This document shows positions 1-50,383 of a DNA stretch of 64,000 bases, one piece after another. Position 1 is the stretch's first letter. Each line of letters opens with the position of its first letter. The DNA is from Escherichia coli (GTDB lineage: Bacteria; Pseudomonadota; Gammaproteobacteria; Enterobacterales; Enterobacteriaceae). The DNA lies in the NCBI RefSeq assembly GCF_029227855.1, contig NZ_CP074356.1, one strand, 5' to 3'. The translations under genes and the position numbers were made by a program. The notes beneath the pieces are model-generated. The model made no database searches. It worked only from the letters and a program-made list of their open reading frames with translations, and was not told where the DNA came from.

Positions 1-343
1 GCGCCCGTTCATAAAACGCAAAACGATTGATGCGGATGATGTCAGGACACGGGGCTTGTAGTGAAAGCGCATTACGGTAACGTCGTTCTACTTCAGGATC
101 GAGAGTGTCACCTTCTACCGCCGCCATCATCACCAGCGGCGGTGCATAACTGTCCAGTTCAAATAACGGGATTATCGCCTGGAGCAAGTCGCTCACCAAC
201 AGGCCATCAGCGCGGATCACCTGCGGTCCCATCGAATGGGCGGGAAAGTGAGCATCGGAAAAAATAATTTCATCTCCATGCCCCATCTCTGCCAGCACTT
301 TCAATAGTTCGGGAGAAATTAACGGCGAAATTGTTTTCAGCAT
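1..343 (-). CDS. fucU: L-fucose mutarotase FucU, N-terminal 114 codons only (3' end cut by window edge)
   Basis: ATG at 343-341 two nt downstream of the fucK stop; reverse-strand translation [34 protein letters not shown]... is RbsD/FucU-like; position in fuc operon. Confidence 0.8.
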
Positions 344-344
344 T

Positions 345-1793
345 TCACACTTCCTCTATAAATTCAGGTTCAGTTTGCGGGTAGAAATAACGGTACTGAT
401 AATGAATCTGTGCGCGGGCTTCTTCCGGGCTGTTAAATTCCCCTACGCCATACCAACCGAACAGCGCAGCTCCTGCGACGGTCGTTTCTGCGTCGTCGAG
501 AACTTTTACCGGAATATCAAGCATATTGGCTTTAATCTGATTCCACAATGTGTTGCGACTTCCTCCGCCGACTAACAATAATTCAGAGGCTTTAAAGTGC
601 CCGATTTTTTCCAGCATCTGTAGATTGCGCTGTAATTGCGCGGTTAACCCTTCCAGCGCCGCGCGATAGAAATGCCCCCGCGTGGTATTAAGCGTCACTC
701 CTTGCCAGCCAGCGTTCTGACACGACAATAAATCACACTGCATTTTCACGCCATCCGCGCCAGGCGCGATCAGACGAGCCTCTTCAATCAACATTTGCCA
801 GGGAGTTTCTGCCGTCCAGAACAGTTTTCTCACCCACTCCAGCACGCCGGATGCCAGCCATTGCATACCTGGGTTATACAACCCTGCCTGACTATCCAGT
901 TCGCAGGTGGAACCGGCATACTGACTTAACAGCGAAGTATCAACCTGGGCGCTACGGACCATTAAAATTTCCCATGTACCGGAAGAGAGCACGGGTTCAT
1001 TTTGTTCGGCACCAGCGCCAAAAAGGGCGAACTGGGTATCGTGACCTGCGGAAATCACCGGTATGCCAACGGGTAAGCCGAGCATTGCTGCGGCGCTGTT
1101 CTGTAACGTACCAATCTGTTCACCCGCTTCCACCAGACGAGGGAAGAGTCGGCGTGGAATACCGGTGGCTTGTAAAATTTGCGGACTGAAATCGCGTTGC
1201 TGGATATCCAGCATCTGGCTGGTTCCGGCCATCGTGATATCAGTAGTGAATTCGCCGGTTAAACGGTGGTTAATCAGCGACGAAATAAAGAGCCAGGCGT
1301 GCGCGAGTTCCAGCAGTTGTGGATGATTTTCTTTCAACCACACCAACTTATATAACGTATTGAAACTAAAGGCTCCGACGCCAGAAATAGCCTGCAACTG
1401 CTGTGCGGAGATCAACCGTTCAATATTGTCCATTACCGCTGCTGTTCGCGGACATTTCCAGCTAATGATCGGATAGAGCAGATTGCCTTGCTTATCTACC
1501 AGAGCGCCATCCACACCAAAGGTGGTGACGGCGATACCGCGGATGTGGCAATCAGTCAGTTCACTATTGATTTGCCGACAGCAATCAGCAAAGCGTTGCA
1601 AAATGGCGTCTAAAGACCACTGGTGCCAGGTGTTGTTTTCCATCGCGATATCGCTGGCATTAGGCGTTGAGGCGCGGGCAACAATTTTTCCCTGCCGATT
1701 AACCGCGATGGCTCTGACATTGGTCGCGCCACAGTCGAGTACCAGGATAACTTCTTGTTTCATAATCGCTCCTGCAATATAGCCGGATAACAT
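345..1793 (-). CDS. fucK: L-fuculokinase (FGGY kinase), 482 aa
   Basis: ORF track 482 aa; sequence and length match FucK; operon context fucPIKU. Confidence 0.93.
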
Positions 1794-1871
1794 TGTTTAT
1801 CCGGCTAACCACTCTTGCTTGTTCAGGCCCGGTAGCCGGAGCGACCGGGCATCACATCAGGGAGTAATGTA

Positions 1872-3647
1872 TTAACGCTTGTACAACGGGCCGTAGTTCT
1901 GGCAAGCGCGGTAATCCTGGCCTTCAATATCCATGCCGTGCGCGGCCCAGGCAGAAGGACGATACACTTTGGTCTCTTCAACGTTGTGCATACATACCGG
2001 GATACGCAGCATGGAGGCAAGAGTGATAAAGTCTGCGCCAACGTGGCCGATGGTCAGAACCCCGTGGTTAGCGCCCCAGTTCGCCATTACCGAGTACACA
2101 TCCGTAAACGGCCCTTTACCGGTGAGGCGCGGTGCAAACCAGGTGGTTGGCCAGGTTGAGTTGGTGCGTTTGTTGAGGATGTCATGCACATCCTTCGGCA
2201 ATTCCACGCTCCAGCCTTCCGCGATTTGCAGTACCGGTCCCAGGCCTTTGATGATGTTGACTCGAGTCATAGTGAACGGGACGCCGCCTTCGGTAAGGAA
2301 GCGAGAAGAGTAACCGCCGCCACGGAAGTATTCGTGGATCGCCGGGCACCATTCGGTAGCGGCGAGGCAAGCGTCAGCCTCTTGCTGAGAGATTTCCCAG
2401 TGCGGCTTCATCGTCGGGTTACCTTCGCTGTCGCGTTGTTTACAGGAACCGTCCAGCGCAGCAGAACCGGAGTTGATCAAATGGATGATGCCGTGTTCTG
2501 CCAGTCCGTCCAGTTTATGCCCCGTTACACGCTCAATTGCTTCTGGTGACCAGTAGGTACGCACATCGGCAAATACCTGAGCGGTACCAGTGAGCTGGTG
2601 GCCCATTAGCATTGCCACGCCGTTAAGACTGTCGTTTTCGGTCGCCACGACAAAGGGTTCGCGCACGCCATTCCAGTCAAATGAACTGTTAAGGATCGCT
2701 TCGGCGGTGTCGCCATTGGGATATTGATCGGTCCAGTGGCGTTGTCCCTGGAAGCCCGCAGCGATGGCGTTGTAGCCAAGTGATTCTTCCACGCGACCAA
2801 TATCGGCCAGTTTGCTGTTGCCTTGCATCATGTCGCGGATACACATCGCCATCAGTAAACTTTCGCGCAGAACTGCGCGGCTTTGCTCGGCATTGCGTTG
2901 ATACTGTTTGTTATTTTCATCTTCGCCATAGCGGAAGTTTTTATCAGCCCAGGCCAGCGCCATTTCCAGTTCGGCTTCGTCGTAAATCTTCTGATCGATA
3001 CGGCGACGCAGTTCGGTCATATCCACCGCCTGGACTTTCATTCCCAGCCAGGATTCAAAGAAGTTGTGATCAACAATGGAACCGGCGATACCCATCGAAA
3101 CGCCGCCCAGCGACAGATAGCTTTTACCTTTCATGCTGGCGACGGCCAAACCGGCGCGGGCAAAGCGCAGCAGTTTTTCTTCAACATCAGCAGGAATCGA
3201 TGTGTCATCGGCATCCTGAACGTCATGACCGTAAATGGAGAATGCCGGGATGCCTTTCTGGCTGTGAGCTGCCAGAGCCGCTGCCAGGTAAACAGCGCCG
3301 GGACGTTCAGTGCCGTTAAAGCCCCAAATGGCTTTCGGGCGGGTTGGATCCATGTCGATGGTTTCACTGCCATAGCACCAGCAAGGCGTTACCGTAATGG
3401 TGAGGCCTACATTCTGACTGCTGAATTTTTCTTCGCAAGCAGCGGCTTCAGCCATACCCGCGATACAGGTATCGGAAATGACACACTCGACGGCAGCTCC
3501 GCAGGCATGGCGCAGTTTCTCGGTCAGCAGTGCGGCCGTGGCTTTCGCCATATTCATTGTTTGTTCTTCAAGCGACTCACGAACACCCATGCGACGACCG
3601 TCAATAACCGGGCGGATACCAATTTTCGGTAAGCTGATTTTTTTCAT
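1872..3647 (-). CDS. fucI: L-fucose isomerase, 591 aa
   Basis: ORF track 591 aa [19 protein letters not shown]...; length and context. Confidence 0.95.
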
Positions 3648-3679
3648 TACTGATTCCTCACTTTATTCGGAAAATATGT

Positions 3680-4996
3680 TCAGTTAGTTGCCGTTTGAGA
3701 ACGGAAACGGGCAAAGATAAAGATGACTGCGAAGCAGAGTGCCGGGATCAGTTCGGCAGTGGGGATGTTGCCCGCTGCGTCACTGACAAACCCCATGACC
3801 GGAGTGACAATACCGCCGCCAATAATGGTCATAACGATGAAGGACGAACCGTATTTGGTGTCCTGGCCGAGATTTTTAATGCCCAGCGAGAAGATTGTTG
3901 GGTACTGAATCGACATAAAGGCACTGCATAAAGTCAGGGCTATTAAGCCCACATGACCGCCAGCGAAGGCTGAGATCAGGCACAGTGCCATAGCGATTAA
4001 TGCGTAGGCGGCCAGGACTTTGTGTGGTGCGAAGCGACTGATGAGCCAGGTACCGGTGAAACGACCAATAAAGAAGCACACCATGGTTCCGGTTAAATAG
4101 TTAGCGGCAAAGCCTGCAGTCATACCTGGAATTTCTTCTACAGCGTAGCGAATCAAATAGCTCCAGCAGGCCGTTTGTGCGCCGACATAGCAGAATTGCG
4201 CTAATACCGCCCAGCGCCAGTGACGAATACGCGCCAGACGAGAAAGCGATGCGGAGAACGATCCTTGTTTGGCGTCACTGTGATTATCACTCTGCAATGC
4301 CGGGAATTTCGTCAGCATGATCAGCAGGGCGACCAGTAACACGATAGCCACGATGATCATATAAGGTGTCTGTACCGATAATACCAGGCTGTGTTTATAC
4401 GCACTCAATTGCTCTGGAGACATTTTATCGAGAACGTCTTGCGATTGATGTGGCACGTTAGACAAAATAAGACTTTGCCCAAAGACAACCGCGATAATTG
4501 CGCCAAATGAGTTAAATGTTTGCGCAAGATTTAAGCGGAAGTGACCACTGCTTTCCGGCCCTAATACCGTAACAAAAGGGTTTGCGGCAGTTTCCAGACA
4601 ACCTAATCCGGCTGCAATAATAAATAGGCCAACTAAAAATAAGGTGTAGTTCATTATTTCTGCAGCGGGCCAGAATAATGCAGCGCCCAAGGCATATAAA
4701 AATAATCCGGTAATAATCCCTGCTTTATAACTGAGTTTTTTCATCAATATCCCGGCAGGGATTGGGATAATGAAATAACCAAAGTAAAAGGCCGATTGGA
4801 TCAGGCCAGCCTGGAAATTTGTCAGCGTAAAAGCCTGCTGGAATTGAGGTAATAAAATGTCGTTAAGGTTATTGGCTACCGCCCAAAGAAAAAACAGTGA
4901 GCACAGCAGCGCGAATGGAATAATGTAACTTCTGCTTTGCCCTGCATCTTTATCTACCGCACGGTAACTCTGCGTTTGTATTGATGTGTTTCCCAT
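3680..4996 (-). CDS. fucP: L-fucose:H+ symporter (MFS), 438 aa
   Basis: ORF track 438 aa, polytopic hydrophobic protein; first gene of fucPIK. Confidence 0.93.
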   Translation of the reverse strand: MGNTSIQTQSYRAVDKDAGQSRSYIIPFALLCSLFFLWAVANNLNDILLPQFQQAFTLTNFQAGLIQSAFYFGYFIIPIPAGILMKKLSYKAGIITGLFLYALGAALFWPAAEIMNYTLFLVGLFIIAAGLGCLETAANPFVTVLGPESSGHFRLNLAQTFNSFGAIIAVVFGQSLILSNVPHQSQDVLDKMSPEQLSAYKHSLVLSVQTPYMIIVAIVLLVALLIMLTKFPALQSDNHSDAKQGSFSASLSRLARIRHWRWAVLAQFCYVGAQTACWSYLIRYAVEEIPGMTAGFAANYLTGTMVCFFIGRFTGTWLISRFAPHKVLAAYALIAMALCLISAFAGGHVGLIALTLCSAFMSIQYPTIFSLGIKNLGQDTKYGSSFIVMTIIGGGIVTPVMGFVSDAAGNIPTAELIPALCFAVIFIFARFRSQTATN

Positions 4997-5542
4997 AGCA
5001 TCCTCTTAGGTTCAGAAGCTTAAGCACGTAATCGGTTATGTTTTCAAAAGTGCAAAACCAGCGAGTTCGGGCTTCATATCAGTGAATATTTGCCTGTCAG
5101 AAATGAACTCATGGATTCATTTTCAAATAAAAAACGCTCTGTAATATGACGGCGGTCACACTTATTAGCTGGGAGGTGACTTTATGTGACTACCATCACT
5201 TTAATAATCGAAATTTCATGCCCGTTTCAGAAAATAAATCATAAAAAACACAAACCCGATGACCGTATTAATTGTTTGTGCCGAAAACGGGCATTTCTGG
5301 CGAGAGGGAATGGGAAAATGACCGTTTTGATAAATATTTTTAAGAGCGGTCATTTTTAATGGGGTTATAAAAAGAGAAGTTGCAGTTATTTACTGTGATT
5401 AGTTGAACCAGGTCACAAAATATAAGCTTGTGAATTTCTTTCTTGTTAATCAGGAAGAAGATGGTGGGTAATTAAACGGCTAATTCAATAGTGTGAAAGG
5501 AACAACATTATTGCCCTGTTTTGAATCAGAGAGAGGTAGCTA
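4997..5542. promoter_or_regulatory. Divergent fucPIKU / fucAO control region; CRP-like site TGTGACTACCATCACT near 5185-5200 and three ATGACCG-type motifs
   Basis: 546 bp AT-rich intergenic between divergently oriented fucP and fucA; near-consensus CRP half-sites read directly. Confidence 0.55.
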
Positions 5543-6190
5543 ATGGAACGAAATAAACTTGCTCGTCAGATTATTGACACTTGCCTGGAAATGACCCGCC
5601 TGGGACTGAACCAGGGGACAGCGGGTAACGTCAGTGTACGTTATCAGGATGGGATGCTGATTACGCCTACAGGTATTCCATATGAAAAACTGACAGAGTC
5701 GCATATTGTCTTTATTGATGGCAACGGTAAACATGAGGAAGGAAAGCTCCCCTCAAGCGAATGGCGTTTCCATATGGCGGCCTATCAAAGCAGACCGGAT
5801 GCCAACGCGGTTGTTCACAATCATGCCGTTCATTGCACAGCAGTTTCCATTCTTAACCGACCGATCCCCGCTATTCACTACATGATTGCGGCGGCTGGCG
5901 GTAATTCTATTCCTTGCGCGCCTTATGCGACCTTTGGAACACGCGAACTTTCTGAACATGTTGCGCTGGCTCTCAAAAATCGTAAGGCAACTTTGTTACA
6001 ACATCATGGGCTTATCGCTTGTGAGGTGAATCTGGAAAAAGCGTTATGGCTGGCGCATGAAGTTGAAGTGCTGGCGCAACTTTACCTGACGACCCTGGCG
6101 ATTACGGACCCGGTGCCAGTGCTGAGCGATGAAGAGATTGCCGTAGTGCTGGAGAAATTCAAAACCTATGGGTTACGGATTGAAGAGTAA
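5543..6190 (+). CDS. fucA: L-fuculose-1-phosphate aldolase, 215 aa
   Basis: ORF track 215 aa MERNKLARQIIDTCLEMTRLGL...; class II aldolase. Confidence 0.95.
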   Translation: MERNKLARQIIDTCLEMTRLGLNQGTAGNVSVRYQDGMLITPTGIPYEKLTESHIVFIDGNGKHEEGKLPSSEWRFHMAAYQSRPDANAVVHNHAVHCTAVSILNRPIPAIHYMIAAAGGNSIPCAPYATFGTRELSEHVALALKNRKATLLQHHGLIACEVNLEKALWLAHEVEVLAQLYLTTLAITDPVPVLSDEEIAVVLEKFKTYGLRIEE

Positions 6191-7384: not shown

Positions 7385-7414
7385 GCCGGATGCGACGTTT
7401 GCGCCGTATCCGGC
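7385..7414. repeat. REP-like palindrome GCCGGATGCGACG...CGTATCCGGC between convergent fucO and xni
   Basis: Imperfect inverted repeat read directly; typical REP sequence class. Confidence 0.6.
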
Positions 7415-7420
7415 ACGCCG

Positions 7421-43785: not shown

Positions 43786-43886
43786 GCCGGATGATCCTGC
43801 CTACGGTTCCGGGCTGGGGACTTGTAAGCCTGATAAGACGCGTCAAGCGTCGCATCAGGCGCTGAATGTCGGATGTTGCGTGCAGC
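43786..43886. repeat. REP/BIME-type palindromic units, including GCCTGATAAGACGCGTCAAGCGTCGCATCAGGC, between convergent ygcQ and ygcP
   Basis: Palindromic REP sequence read directly; near-identical copy at 50331-50362. Confidence 0.7.
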
Positions 43887-44778: not shown

Positions 44779-46040
44779 CGCAGACTCCTGATAACATCGC
44801 CCGCCAGATGCCACAGGCCGTGACGACGTAAATGACGCCAGAATAACTGGCGCAGCGGTGGAACAGGTTTATCACCCTGATCCCATAAATCACGGGAAAT
44901 ATCCTGCATTAACGCAGGCCACGCACGGTACCATCCAGGGCGTTGCAAAAGCGCCGGAACATGCTGATAACGTTGTAGAACATCCCATAGCAGGCTGCGC
45001 TCTACGTTGTGATGATAAAGCGCAAACAGATTTTGCGGCTCGCGGTGCTGGCAGGCGCTTATCAGCGTTTGTGCCGCCGCCTGCGCGCCAGTCAGCGCCA
45101 TATCCATGCCGCGCACGGAAATTCCGGTATTGACGCAACTGCGCAACGCATCGCCCACCAGCAGCCAGCCGTTACCGGCGTATTGCACCGGCATACTGTG
45201 CAAGCCACCTTCTGGCACCAGATGCGCACCATACTCCAGTGATTCCGTGTTTTTGATAAGCGGGCGCACTGCCGGATGCGTTTTAAAGCGAGCCAGCAGC
45301 TCGCTTGCCGGAACACGACTTTGCGTAAGGGAAGAGAGCGGGCAAACAATCCCTAACGAGAGCGTTTGTTGATTAGTATAAAGAAATGCGCCGCCGGGTA
45401 AGTCATCACAGATCCCGCCGCTGAACAGCAACGCTGCGCCTTCGTTATTCTCCAGATGAAAACGTTCTTCAATAGCGGATGTTTCCAGCGACAGCACTTC
45501 TTTGATCCCCAACGCCATCGCTTCGCCAGCAGGACGAGTCACTAACCCGTGACGTTCAGCCAGGACGCTGTTGGCACCTTCTGCCAGCACCACATAACGG
45601 GCGCGGAGAATATCGTCACCACAAATGACACCACACACCCTGCCGTTTTCTTCATACAGCGCATCCACCGTCGCACCGGGGATGCATTCGACACCTTCTT
45701 TTTCGGCTTCGGCAACCAGCCACGGATCGAACCGTGCACGTAATACACTCCAGGATTCACGGCCGGGCTGTAAGCTGGAAAACGTCGTTGCGCCATCCGG
45801 CGTTAGCAGAGAAAGGCTTTCGTGAGTGATGCGTCGTTCAAGAGGCGCGGTCAGATGAAATTGCGGGAGGAGTTCCGCGAGCGCATGGGTGTATAAACGC
45901 CCGCCGGAAAGATTTTTGCTGCCGGGGATTTCAGCGCGTTCCAGTAACAGAACGGACAAACCTGCCCGCGTGCAGCGTAACGCGCAAGCGGTGCCTGCTA
46001 TACCCGCACCAATAATAATAATGTCGCAGTTGTCTTCCAT
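44769..46040 (-). CDS. ygcN: FAD-dependent oxidoreductase (FixC / ETF-QO-like), 423 aa
   Basis: ORF track 433 aa trimmed to MEDNCDIIIIGAGIAG (FAD-binding GxGxxG). Confidence 0.82.
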   Translation of the reverse strand: MEDNCDIIIIGAGIAGTACALRCTRAGLSVLLLERAEIPGSKNLSGGRLYTHALAELLPQFHLTAPLERRITHESLSLLTPDGATTFSSLQPGRESWSVLRARFDPWLVAEAEKEGVECIPGATVDALYEENGRVCGVICGDDILRARYVVLAEGANSVLAERHGLVTRPAGEAMALGIKEVLSLETSAIEERFHLENNEGAALLFSGGICDDLPGGAFLYTNQQTLSLGIVCPLSSLTQSRVPASELLARFKTHPAVRPLIKNTESLEYGAHLVPEGGLHSMPVQYAGNGWLLVGDALRSCVNTGISVRGMDMALTGAQAAAQTLISACQHREPQNLFALYHHNVERSLLWDVLQRYQHVPALLQRPGWYRAWPALMQDISRDLWDQGDKPVPPLRQLFWRHLRRHGLWHLAGDVIRSLRCL

Positions 46041-50310: not shown

Positions 50311-50330
50311 CCATCAGCCCGGTCTTGTAG

Positions 50331-50362
50331 GCCTGATAAGACGCGTGAGCGTCGCATCAGGC
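50331..50362. repeat. REP palindromic unit GCCTGATAAGACGCGTGAGCGTCGCATCAGGC between cysI and cysH
   Basis: Read directly; near-identical to the unit at 43828-43860. Confidence 0.7.
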
Positions 50363-50383
50363 AAGGCAAACAGTGAGGAATCT

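Follow-up and report, generated by a model that had tools for sequence, protein, structure and literature searches.

Two stem-loops in the fucI-fucK spacer of Escherichia coli as a probable remnant of an inverted REP pair

REPs and BIMEs of Enterobacteriaceae (Y, Z1 and Z2 units and the GCCCGGT-type of Klebsiella and Citrobacter) are the closest described relatives of the elements analysed here. The classic stabiliser of this kind is reportedly the malE-malF REP of Newbury et al. 1987. It is an intercistronic REP-type hairpin with proposed stabilisation of upstream message and/or reduced read-through, i.e. the role that we propose for the fuc locus. REPs have been documented both as stabilisers of upstream mRNA and as partial terminators, and mRNA half-lives are not uniformly changed by them (bioRxiv 10.64898/2026.03.23.713779). 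REP325 of the yjdMN operon (same source) is likewise a REP-type hairpin between co-transcribed genes for which upstream-biased expression was proposed. As to their mobility, recognition by TnpA_REP needs the GTAG tag, and TnpA_REP activity is abolished when a regular stem is restored (PMC8266576).

The pair of hairpins between fucI and fucK resembles known REPs and BIMEs in several respects. It is extragenic, lies within one operon, consists of two opposed units about 20 nt apart that are predicted to form stable stem-loops on mRNA, and it has been targeted by IS1397. On the other hand, its tags read GTTA and CTGA, AA-TT pairs stand in place of the bulge, upper stem and loop have shrunk to a 6-nt loop, and the exact sequence occurs once per genome. 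REP325 and malE-malF consist of several canonical REP units and are backed by experiments, whereas the fuc hairpins are degenerate and their role is proposed by analogy. To specialists they will appear as an ordinary and unsurprising element.

The window, i.e. the whole stretch of E. coli DNA that was analysed, comprises 64,000 nucleotides. Both genes concerned lie on its minus strand: fucI (L-fucose isomerase) at 1872-3647 according to the ORF list and RefSeq, and fucK (L-fuculokinase, 472 aa from the RefSeq start) at 345-1763 according to the ORF list, RefSeq and the TIGR02628 profile. Under RefSeq annotation they are separated by an untranslated intercistronic spacer of 108 nt (1764-1871, minus strand) that accommodates both hairpins and corresponds to 2937360-2937467 of MG1655. 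Hairpin 1 starts 21 nt downstream of the fucI stop codon (1874-1872), and 19 nt separate its stem from that of hairpin 2. An AGGAG Shine-Dalgarno sequence of fucK, read from the sequence at 1769-1773 (minus strand), follows 6 nt (1774-1779) past the base of hairpin 2 and precedes the AUG by 5 nt. No discussion of this spacer and no experiment on the locus were found in the literature searched.

Hairpin 2, the fucK-proximal unit, is a perfect inverted repeat. The plus strand of the window reads AGCCGGATAA at 1781-1790, CATTGT at 1791-1796 and TTATCCGGCT at 1797-1806. These letters agree with the original prediction of a perfect 10-bp palindrome with a CATTGT loop at 1781-1806, and the inverted-repeat search extends its arms to 11 bp (1780-1790 and 1797-1807) around the 6-nt loop. 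The whole feature (1780-1807, minus strand) appears on the mRNA as 5'-UAGCCGGAUAA-ACAAUG-UUAUCCGGCUA-3', so that an AUG at 1793-1791 does lie inside the loop, as had been noticed. In silico, hairpin 2 folds on its own with -15.9 kcal/mol, and in its context the mean pair probability is 0.96. Just five distinct hairpins in the window combine a perfect stem of 10 bp or more with a loop of 3-10 nt. When nested versions are included there are 12 entries, whereas 60 first-order Markov simulations gave an average of 0.55; such hairpins being far fewer in the simulations, chance does not account for the palindrome. Relative to dinucleotide shuffles, folding of the 146-nt region has a z-score of -3.0.

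A second GC-rich inverted repeat had been placed at about 1826-1850 in the same spacer as the palindrome. Its arms were indeed found at 1827-1836 and 1841-1850 (90% complementary), and they form hairpin 1, the fucI-proximal unit in inverted orientation (1827-1850, minus strand), identified by inverted repeat, fold and REP model. Its mRNA sequence is 5'-GCCCGGU CGCUCCGGCU ACCGGGC-3', with a predicted stand-alone fold of -17.4 kcal/mol and a pair probability of 0.99.

Position of an AUG in the loop invites the reading that hairpin 2 exposes or regulates the start codon of fucK or, in a weaker version, that it acts as a standby-site structure immediately upstream of the Shine-Dalgarno sequence, in either case tuning fucK initiation. 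The loop AUG (1791-1793, minus strand) is in frame, its predicted probability of being unpaired is 0.97, and a 482-aa form of fucK beginning there is found in older database entries. Nevertheless, we regard this reading as improbable, and the claim that the loop AUG is the start codon of fucK did not hold. In RefSeq, both in a 100%-identical strain and in K-12 MG1655 (NP_417283.2), fucK encodes 472 aa and starts at window position 1763, behind AGGAG and 30 nt downstream of the loop AUG. The 472-aa form is also that of the UniRef entry FUCK_ECOLI, present on at least 1000 contigs, while 45 contigs, most of them older GenBank entries, carry the 482-aa form.

Comparative data point to the same start. 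All 45 orthologs confirmed by tblastn align from residue 1 of the 472-aa form. In the 46 orthologous fucI-fucK loci whose spacers were compared, conservation sets in at the ATG at 1763, and a GGAG-type Shine-Dalgarno sequence lies 5-7 nt ahead of the MKQ/MKN ATG in every one. An in-frame ATG at -30 is confined, among these spacers, to E. coli-like sequences and three Citrobacter loci, where it is coincidental. E. albertii carries AUA in place of the loop AUG and an in-frame TAA at -36, which leaves no alternative upstream start for fucK there, and the loop sequence is variable within the genus. The L-fuculokinase equivalog profile TIGR02628 (842 bits) aligns from residue 14 of the 482-aa ORF, and the onset of alignment with the family profile and with solved FGGY homologues falls at residues 10-18 of this long ORF. 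Finally, this AUG lacks a free Shine-Dalgarno sequence because the sole GGA sits in the stem. It is thus most likely an unused, incidental loop sequence that was taken as the start by older annotation, now superseded.

Control of fucK translation from the loop fares no better. Start codon at 1763 and Shine-Dalgarno sequence at 1769-1773 both lie outside the hairpin. Masking of the Shine-Dalgarno sequence in dependence on hairpin 2 was considered and dismissed, since partition function calculations gave a mean unpaired probability of 0.30 with the hairpin intact and 0.25 with the hairpin disrupted, i.e. accessibility is barely altered. Moreover, E. whittamii has lost hairpin 2 and its fucK is intact. 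Only 6 nt lie between AGGAG and the base of hairpin 2, near enough for a 30S subunit to reach it during initiation, and the hairpin may influence this step modestly. The outcome is mostly a correction: the impression of a start codon in a loop goes back to the old 482-aa fucK annotation, which still circulates in databases. Design of fucK fusions and knockouts should take the ATG at window position 1763.

The evidence suggests instead that hairpin 2 is one half of a decayed inverted REP pair. In the same spacer of Citrobacter, Klebsiella, Salmonella and others, ...GCCTAC is followed by GTAGGCCGGATAAG...CCATCCGGC, i.e. canonical REPs in opposite orientations, and both E. coli hairpins occupy the position of these BIME-like pairs in Citrobacter, Klebsiella and Salmonella. 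Covariance models of REPs were built from non-Escherichia copies only. With these models, the calibration of which is rough, hairpin 1 (1823-1851) is the best match in the window (20.6 bits, E=0.0064, model of the Citrobacter/Klebsiella GCCCGGT-type REP). Hairpin 2 (1782-1809) comes third in the window with the REP model from other genera, at 16.6 bits and E=0.15, which is not significant alone; the matches above it are two obvious canonical REPs, at 50327 and 43824. As this E value is insufficient, the case for REP descent of hairpin 2 rests on its position, its orientation, an IS1397 insertion and the stronger match of its partner.

Structural features of REPs are preserved in part. The lower stem (GCCGGAT...ATCCGGC or GCCCGGT...ACCGGGC) agrees with the consensus in 7 of 7 pairs in both hairpins, and that of hairpin 2 is identical with the GCCGGAT/ATCCGGC of Y-type REPs. 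Given the 472-aa start of fucK, both hairpins are extragenic between tandem genes. They also display the alternating orientation and short linker of a BIME (hairpin 1 as ...CTAC, hairpin 2 as GTAG...), and orthologous spacers are organized alike. On the other hand, the GTAG/CTAC tag typical of group 2 REPs is absent from both units. The alignments obtained with cmsearch place GUUA (1806-1809, minus strand) opposite GUAG of the model in hairpin 2, and CCUGA opposite CCUAC in hairpin 1, where CUGA (1823-1826, minus strand) represents the mutated remnant of the inverted CTAC tail. The final two bases of the GUUA remnant now lengthen the stem of hairpin 2. Nor is there an AA/GC mismatch bulge: orthologous REPs retain AA opposite C or GC(C), whereas in hairpin 2 AA pairs with UU, and this conversion of the bulge to AA-TT pairs has made hairpin 2 a perfect 11-bp palindrome. 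Both units have therefore lost features required by the transposase, and we consider them immobile fossils; judging from its sequence, hairpin 2 would be expected to serve no longer as a TnpA_REP substrate.

[quoted passage not shown] In other loci, at least 12 in number, the REP model detected additional copies downstream of fucR, which indicates a dispersed family. The exact 40-mer of hairpin 2 is found at a median of one place per E. coli genome. Two other matches of the 9-mer GCCGGATAA in the window (40267 and 51124) turned out not to be REPs. A scan of window positions 1-6000 against Rfam, with E up to 10, yielded zero matches. The RefSeq annotation of MG1655 consulted here contains zero repeat_region features and omits even REP203, so that a missing REP annotation between fucI and fucK is uninformative.

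Insertion of IS1397 provides an additional line of evidence. REPs are reported to be the specific insertion target of this element (PMC1525189). One copy, 1432 bp long, resides at the junction of loop and 3' arm of hairpin 2 in strain BH100 substr. MG2017 and is accompanied by the target duplication GTTA, so hairpin 2 has served as an IS1397 target in a single natural event. Further IS1397 insertions that we examined, at four distinct sites, are all at the apex of REP-type palindromes. Taken together, the locus offers a clean example of REP decay: tag and bulge are gone, the stem has been perfected, and the hairpin is still conserved and still a target of IS1397.

An inverted repeat of 11 bp with a 6-bp spacer has the geometry of many operators as well, and gyrase, IHF and DNA polymerase I have been reported to bind REPs or BIMEs (PMC1525189). 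The palindrome might thus be a double-stranded DNA site for a dimeric regulator, gyrase, IHF or Pol I. We regard this as very improbable: the palindrome is internal to a transcription unit and 2.5 kb away from the fuc promoters, its sequence is accounted for by REP descent, and no obvious IHF-type motif was seen in the linker on reading the sequence. Besides, a model REP was found to have no role in chromosome compaction (bioRxiv 10.64898/2026.03.23.713779).

We next turn to conservation, which bears on the question of whether the REP-derived hairpins are mere neutral fossils, i.e. dead REP copies preserved via close Escherichia lineages or via recombination at the fuc locus. Their REP recognition features are gone, useful covariation is wanting, E. 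whittamii has deleted hairpin 2, IS elements are present in the loops of both hairpins in natural isolates, and REP content at the fucI-fucK site turns over between genera. All this would be in keeping with neutrality. Yet the pattern of substitutions speaks against it. In E. coli the 40-mer of hairpin 2 exists in two common loop forms: 4911 genomes share the K-12 allele and 476 that of the window, which adds up to 5387 of 5424, so that rarer variants account for at most 37 genomes. The loop reads ACAAUG, GCAAUG, GUAAUG or GCCAUA across Escherichia and the stems are invariant; the four distinct changes in the 28-nt hairpin all fall within the 6 loop positions. Counted per 108 nt, the spacer differs at 2, 8 and 3 positions. 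Fourfold-degenerate sites of the flanking genes, taken from the same genomes, would lead one to expect 14-28. At these sites divergence amounts to 0.13-0.27, i.e. within Escherichia the spacer evolves 3-8 times slower (binomial P 7e-6 to 3e-8). Recent recombination is no explanation, since the spacer is slower than flanking sites of the same genomes.

Strong hairpins are, moreover, retained in every orthologous spacer, even where the sequences are unrelated: in each of the 46, one or more hairpins reach -11.6 kcal/mol or below. We therefore consider neutrality unlikely, somewhat less so than control of the start codon. The hairpins are not singled out by this slow evolution, as the remaining intra-operon spacers are conserved to an equal degree. 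Covariation in the REP stems is minimal (one compensatory pair; 50 of 500 shuffles reach the observed score), so that these data do not tell selection on RNA structure apart from conservation of the family at the sequence level.

In Enterobacter, Raoultella, Kosakonia and Symbiopectobacterium the spacer is short and its GC hairpin leads into a stretch of U, a terminator-like arrangement. As in E. coli, these hairpins are stable GC-rich stem-loops at the same junction, a few nt past the fucI stop codon. They differ in possessing a run of 5-7 U and in having no REP sequence kinship, whereas a U run is absent after both E. coli hairpins, the tails of which are CUGAACAA and UAUUGCAG. No GC hairpin with a succeeding U run, the mark of an intrinsic (Rho-independent) terminator, exists in 1764-1871, and promoter and terminator scans detected nothing within this spacer. 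The terminator table in the supplement of bioRxiv 10.64898/2026.03.23.713779 likewise has no row for it.

We propose that both hairpins, which are predicted in silico to fold into stable stem-loops on the polycistronic fucPIKUR mRNA, act at the level of this transcript. Their tags and bulge have been lost by mutation (GTAG to GTTA, CTAC to CTGA), and within Escherichia purifying selection nonetheless appears to maintain their stems. Judging from REPs that have been characterised, the stem-loops would most likely shield the upstream fucP-fucI segment from 3'-to-5' exonucleases and/or partly attenuate transcription into fucK-fucU-fucR, and expression would consequently be tilted to the upstream genes. 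The idea of an mRNA processing or stabilising site, raised in the original prediction, fits such a REP-derived stem-loop pair. On the whole, we find it probable that hairpin 2 is half of a decayed inverted REP pair, that fucK starts at 1763 and that the stem-loops stabilise fucPI or attenuate fucKUR. Published RNA-seq values point in the same direction: baseMean is 1727 over 1776 nt for fucI and 869 over 1419 nt for fucK (supplement of bioRxiv 10.64898/2026.03.23.713779). When normalised to length this is an approximately 1.6-fold fall from fucI to fucK, a weak comparison because it concerns uninduced cells and values compared across genes.

A bolder extension, which we put forward tentatively and hold to be possible rather than probable, is that the immobile REP pair has been co-opted by the host and is selected as an RNA structure that sets the ratio of FucP/FucI to FucK/FucU/FucR, other Enterobacteriaceae using canonical REPs or a leaky terminator instead. 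If so, it would be one more case for the current debate on REP function, and the fucI-fucK junction would represent a natural example of convergent, interchangeable devices of operon polarity. Should the hairpins indeed set the fucI:fucK ratio, this would be relevant to engineering of fucose and fucosyllactose pathways in E. coli.

Lastly, fucI and fucK are listed in reviews among genes repressed in a microarray of Spot 42 overexpression, and docking of this sRNA in the fucK leader could be envisaged. It is the least credible of the readings discussed here. Among 25-nt duplexes of the fucK leader with nt 1-62 of Spot 42, the best has -14.1 kcal/mol, at the 10th percentile of random windows, so the 25-nt scan is unremarkable; RNAduplex run at full length produced duplexes that were long and meaningless. 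Pairing of Spot 42 with the fucP leader attains -23.4 kcal/mol (0.03th percentile). As the fucP leader pairs better, the simpler account of the effect on fucK is that the transcript of the entire operon is repressed or decays.

The L-fucose operon of E. coli occupies the minus strand at window positions 1-5000, with fucP at 3680-4996, fucI at 1872-3647, fucK ending at 345 and, of fucU, the start only. Using a 601-bp query, the fucI/fucK junction was found in 5424 of 5426 complete E. coli genomes with 95-100% identity. The palindrome originally predicted to carry the fucK start codon in its loop is present exactly as reported, with slightly longer arms: 11 perfect base pairs (1780-1790 and 1797-1807) enclose a 6-nt loop, ACAAUG in the mRNA, which does contain an AUG (1793-1791). 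A second inverted repeat from the same prediction was confirmed as well (1827-1836 and 1841-1850). Both lie in the fucI-fucK spacer (1764-1871); the fucI-proximal structure is referred to as hairpin 1 (1827-1850) and the fucK-proximal one as hairpin 2 (1780-1807). The palindrome is genuine and not a product of chance: 5 distinct perfect hairpins with a stem of 10 bp or longer occur in the 64-kb window (12 entries including nested versions), compared to a mean of 0.55 entries in first-order Markov simulations, and the hairpin region folds more stably than its shuffles (z-score -3.0). The only other such palindromes in the window are 15039-15064, 30506-30530, 31893-31922 and 38354-38393; the third has A5/T5 flanks, as typical for a bidirectional terminator.

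The loop AUG is the first codon of a 482-aa ORF. In RefSeq, fucK encodes 472 aa and starts at 1763, 30 nt downstream of it; this annotation, leaving a 108-nt spacer after fucI, is given in both a 100%-identical strain and K-12 MG1655 (NP_417283.2). AGGAG is located 5 nt upstream of the AUG at 1763, and in each of the 46 compared loci a GGAG-type motif precedes the homologous ATG by 5-7 nt. Alignments of the 472-aa protein with the 45 orthologs found in other species invariably start at residue 1; 5' of that ATG the sequence diverges completely, with spacers 50-183 nt long. An in-frame ATG at -30 is confined, in this comparison, to E. coli-like sequences and three Citrobacter loci, in which it is a coincidence. 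In E. albertii, AUA replaces the loop AUG and a TAA lies in frame at -36, which precludes the N-terminal extension. TIGR02628, the L-fuculokinase equivalog profile, matches the 482-aa ORF from residue 14 onwards, and alignments of solved FGGY kinases begin at residues 10-18. UniRef lists the 472-aa form as FUCK_ECOLI, and it was seen on at least 1000 contigs, against 45 contigs, in older GenBank depositions, for the 482-aa form. Since RefSeq, Shine-Dalgarno sequence, ortholog alignment, E. albertii and TIGR02628 all favour 1763, the original prediction drew on a superseded annotation, and the start codon in the hairpin loop is an annotation artefact.

Translational control of fucK through the loop AUG is thus contradicted, and predicted Shine-Dalgarno accessibility, which in the folding model is independent of hairpin 2, argues against it too. 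In silico, hairpin 1 forms with probability 0.99 (-17.4 kcal/mol) and hairpin 2 with probability 0.96 (-15.9 kcal/mol). The Shine-Dalgarno sequence lies outside hairpin 2; its predicted mean probability of being unpaired is 0.30 in the intact sequence versus 0.25 with the 5' arm of hairpin 2 complemented. It is predicted to pair (CAGGA) with UCCUG in codons 6-7 (1740-1775, minus strand), which leaves four of its five bases unpaired with probability about 0.2, hairpin 2 being irrelevant. The fucK coding segment GUUAUCCUGGUA resembles GUUAUCCGGCUA, the 3' arm of hairpin 2 (an inverted repeat).

Pairing of Spot 42 with the fucK leader is a further explanation to be considered, as reviews list fucI and fucK among repressed genes; a search for complementarity to Spot 42 in this leader revealed none notable. 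Candidate complementarity was seen in the fucP 5' UTR (5012-5035, minus strand; 16-39 nt before the ATG of fucP at 4996), where CCGAUUACGUG is fully complementary to Spot 42 CACGUAAUCGG over 11 nt, supplemented by a second block. At -23.4 kcal/mol, the predicted duplex falls at the 0.03th percentile of random 25-nt windows.

The origin of the hairpins becomes apparent from other genera. Citrobacter, Klebsiella, Salmonella (subspecies arizonae and diarizonae) and several others carry two canonical REPs in opposite orientation in the fucI-fucK spacer, the first being TGCC(C/T/G)G(G/A)T...CCTAC and the second GTAGGCCGGATAAG...CCATCCGGC. E. coli hairpins match them in position and orientation: UGCCCGGU-N10-ACCGGGCCUGA corresponds to UGCCCGGU-N11-ACCGGGCCUAC, and GUUAGCCGGAUAA-N8-AUCCGGC to GUAGGCCGGAUAA-N10-AUCCGGC. 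Covariance models were built from non-Escherichia copies only and the whole window was searched with filters off. With the GCCCGGT-type model, 1823-1851 (minus strand) ranks first (20.6 bits, E=0.0064), outranking a canonical REP of E. coli; with the Y-type model, 1782-1809 (minus strand) ranks third (16.6 bits, E=0.15), after obvious REPs at 50327-50362 and 43824-43860. The Y-type model also has hits 3' of fucR in 12 or more of the other loci, so this is a dispersed family and not a fuc-specific motif. The hairpins are thus very probably a REP-derived intercistronic stem-loop pair, and as such an ordinary, nicely decayed REP pair that offers little new. A DNA-level protein site is possible, and conceivable for any REP, but nothing in the present results points to it.

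The window also holds canonical or nearly canonical REPs at 7385-7416 (REP203, between fucO and ygdG), 43786-43861 (apparently a REP pair), 45770-45801 and 50327-50363 (a Z-type REP). The RefSeq table of MG1655 (NC_000913.3 2895000-2944000) holds no repeat_region features in 49 kb; because REP203 itself is unlisted, missing REP annotation there means nothing. Both hairpins contain UCCGGCUA (minus strand, 1833-1840 and 1780-1787), and the 5' arm of hairpin 2 (1800-1807) could form 8 bp with internal sequence of hairpin 1, echoing the large REP-REP hairpin preferred by RNAfold in many orthologous BIMEs.

Cleavage of E. coli REPs by TnpA_REP requires a GTAG tag, which tolerates no substitution, and an AA/GC bulge, repair of which abolishes activity (PMC8266576). 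In contrast, hairpin 2 has GUUA for GTAG and two A-U pairs in place of the bulge; together with two extra basal pairs, these extend the lower stem from 7 bp to the perfect palindrome of 11 bp. Hairpin 1 has CUGA for CTAC. With the tag lost in both units and the bulge in hairpin 2, they are best described as immobilised REP fossils.

Their loops are nevertheless hit by insertion sequences in natural isolates. IS1397 is reported to insert specifically into REPs (PMC1525189). In E. coli BH100 substr. MG2017, in which the 40-mer covering hairpin 2 is interrupted, a 1432-bp copy (3528-4959 of locus L052) lies in hairpin 2 where the loop meets the 3' arm (window ~1794-1797) with target duplication GTTA, and separates fucI and fucK by 1.4 kb; the hairpin is intact in the sister record BH100N. 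The other inspected IS1397 copies, from four distinct sites, all occupy an apical position within REP-type palindromes and are flanked by 3-bp duplications. This makes the insertion in hairpin 2 an in vivo pointer to its REP origin. In E. coli 13KWH46, a 1331-bp IS3-family element (1670-3000 of locus L058) occupies the apical loop of hairpin 1 (window ~1836-1840; target duplication CTCCG). Its ends look like those of IS2.

Within Escherichia, the pair is well preserved. Among 5424 E. coli genomes, the hairpin 2 40-mer is the exact K-12 allele in 4911 and the exact window allele, differing at one loop base, in 476; anything else is found in at most 37. All four distinct substitutions seen in the 28-nt hairpin 2 fall into its six loop positions (ACAAUG, GCAAUG, GUAAUG, GCCAUA). 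Compared with the window, the 108-nt spacer shows 2 differences in Escherichia sp. MOD1-EC7003 (L003; fucI/fucK fourfold-degenerate divergence 0.13-0.16, binomial P 7e-6), 8 in a divergent E. coli-clade genome (L004; 0.25-0.27, P 8e-7) and 3 in E. albertii (L005; 0.21, P 3e-8). Hairpin 1 of the most divergent lineage stays paired, a G-C pair having become G-U. Slow spacer divergence and loop-only substitutions disfavour purely neutral fossils, with the caveats that the other two intra-operon spacers are equally conserved and that covariation across genera is minimal. Escherichia whittamii (L036 2447-2500) has a 54-nt spacer with hairpin 1 only, followed by UUUAUCC and the Shine-Dalgarno sequence; it looks like a deletion of ~54 nt took the linker and the 5' arm and loop of hairpin 2.

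In none of the 46 orthologous spacers is the strongest hairpin weaker than -11.6 kcal/mol. Enterobacter, Raoultella, Kosakonia and Symbiopectobacterium have a 51-57-nt spacer (about 2445-2500 of loci L023, L025, L028, L030, L037, L040 and L043), in which a GC-rich hairpin with 5-7 U within the next 8 nt directly precedes the fucK Shine-Dalgarno sequence; by sequence, it resembles an intrinsic terminator inside the fuc operon. Structure at this junction thus persists while sequence is replaced. In two Citrobacter loci (L011 2317-2500 and L044 2382-2500), the spacer contains a different, longer insert of 183 and 118 nt, respectively, in which GCAGGACAAAAA...UUUUUGUCCUGC makes up a long perfect hairpin and GUAUGACGGG motifs are repeated.

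On the fuc mRNA, the REP-derived pair may form a barrier to decay and/or weakly attenuate transcription, a role that we favour, by analogy, with moderate to low confidence. REP325 limits read-through into the downstream gene, partly in a Rho-dependent manner, and stabilises the upstream transcript, and expression of REP-separated tandem gene pairs is biased genome-wide to the upstream gene (bioRxiv 10.64898/2026.03.23.713779). RNA-seq baseMean values in the supplementary table of this preprint are 226 for fucP, 1727 for fucI, 869 for fucK, 279 for fucU and 421 for fucR. Normalised to length, the fucI value exceeds that of fucK about 1.6-fold, at best a hint of upstream bias, the operon being uninduced and baseMean crude across genes.
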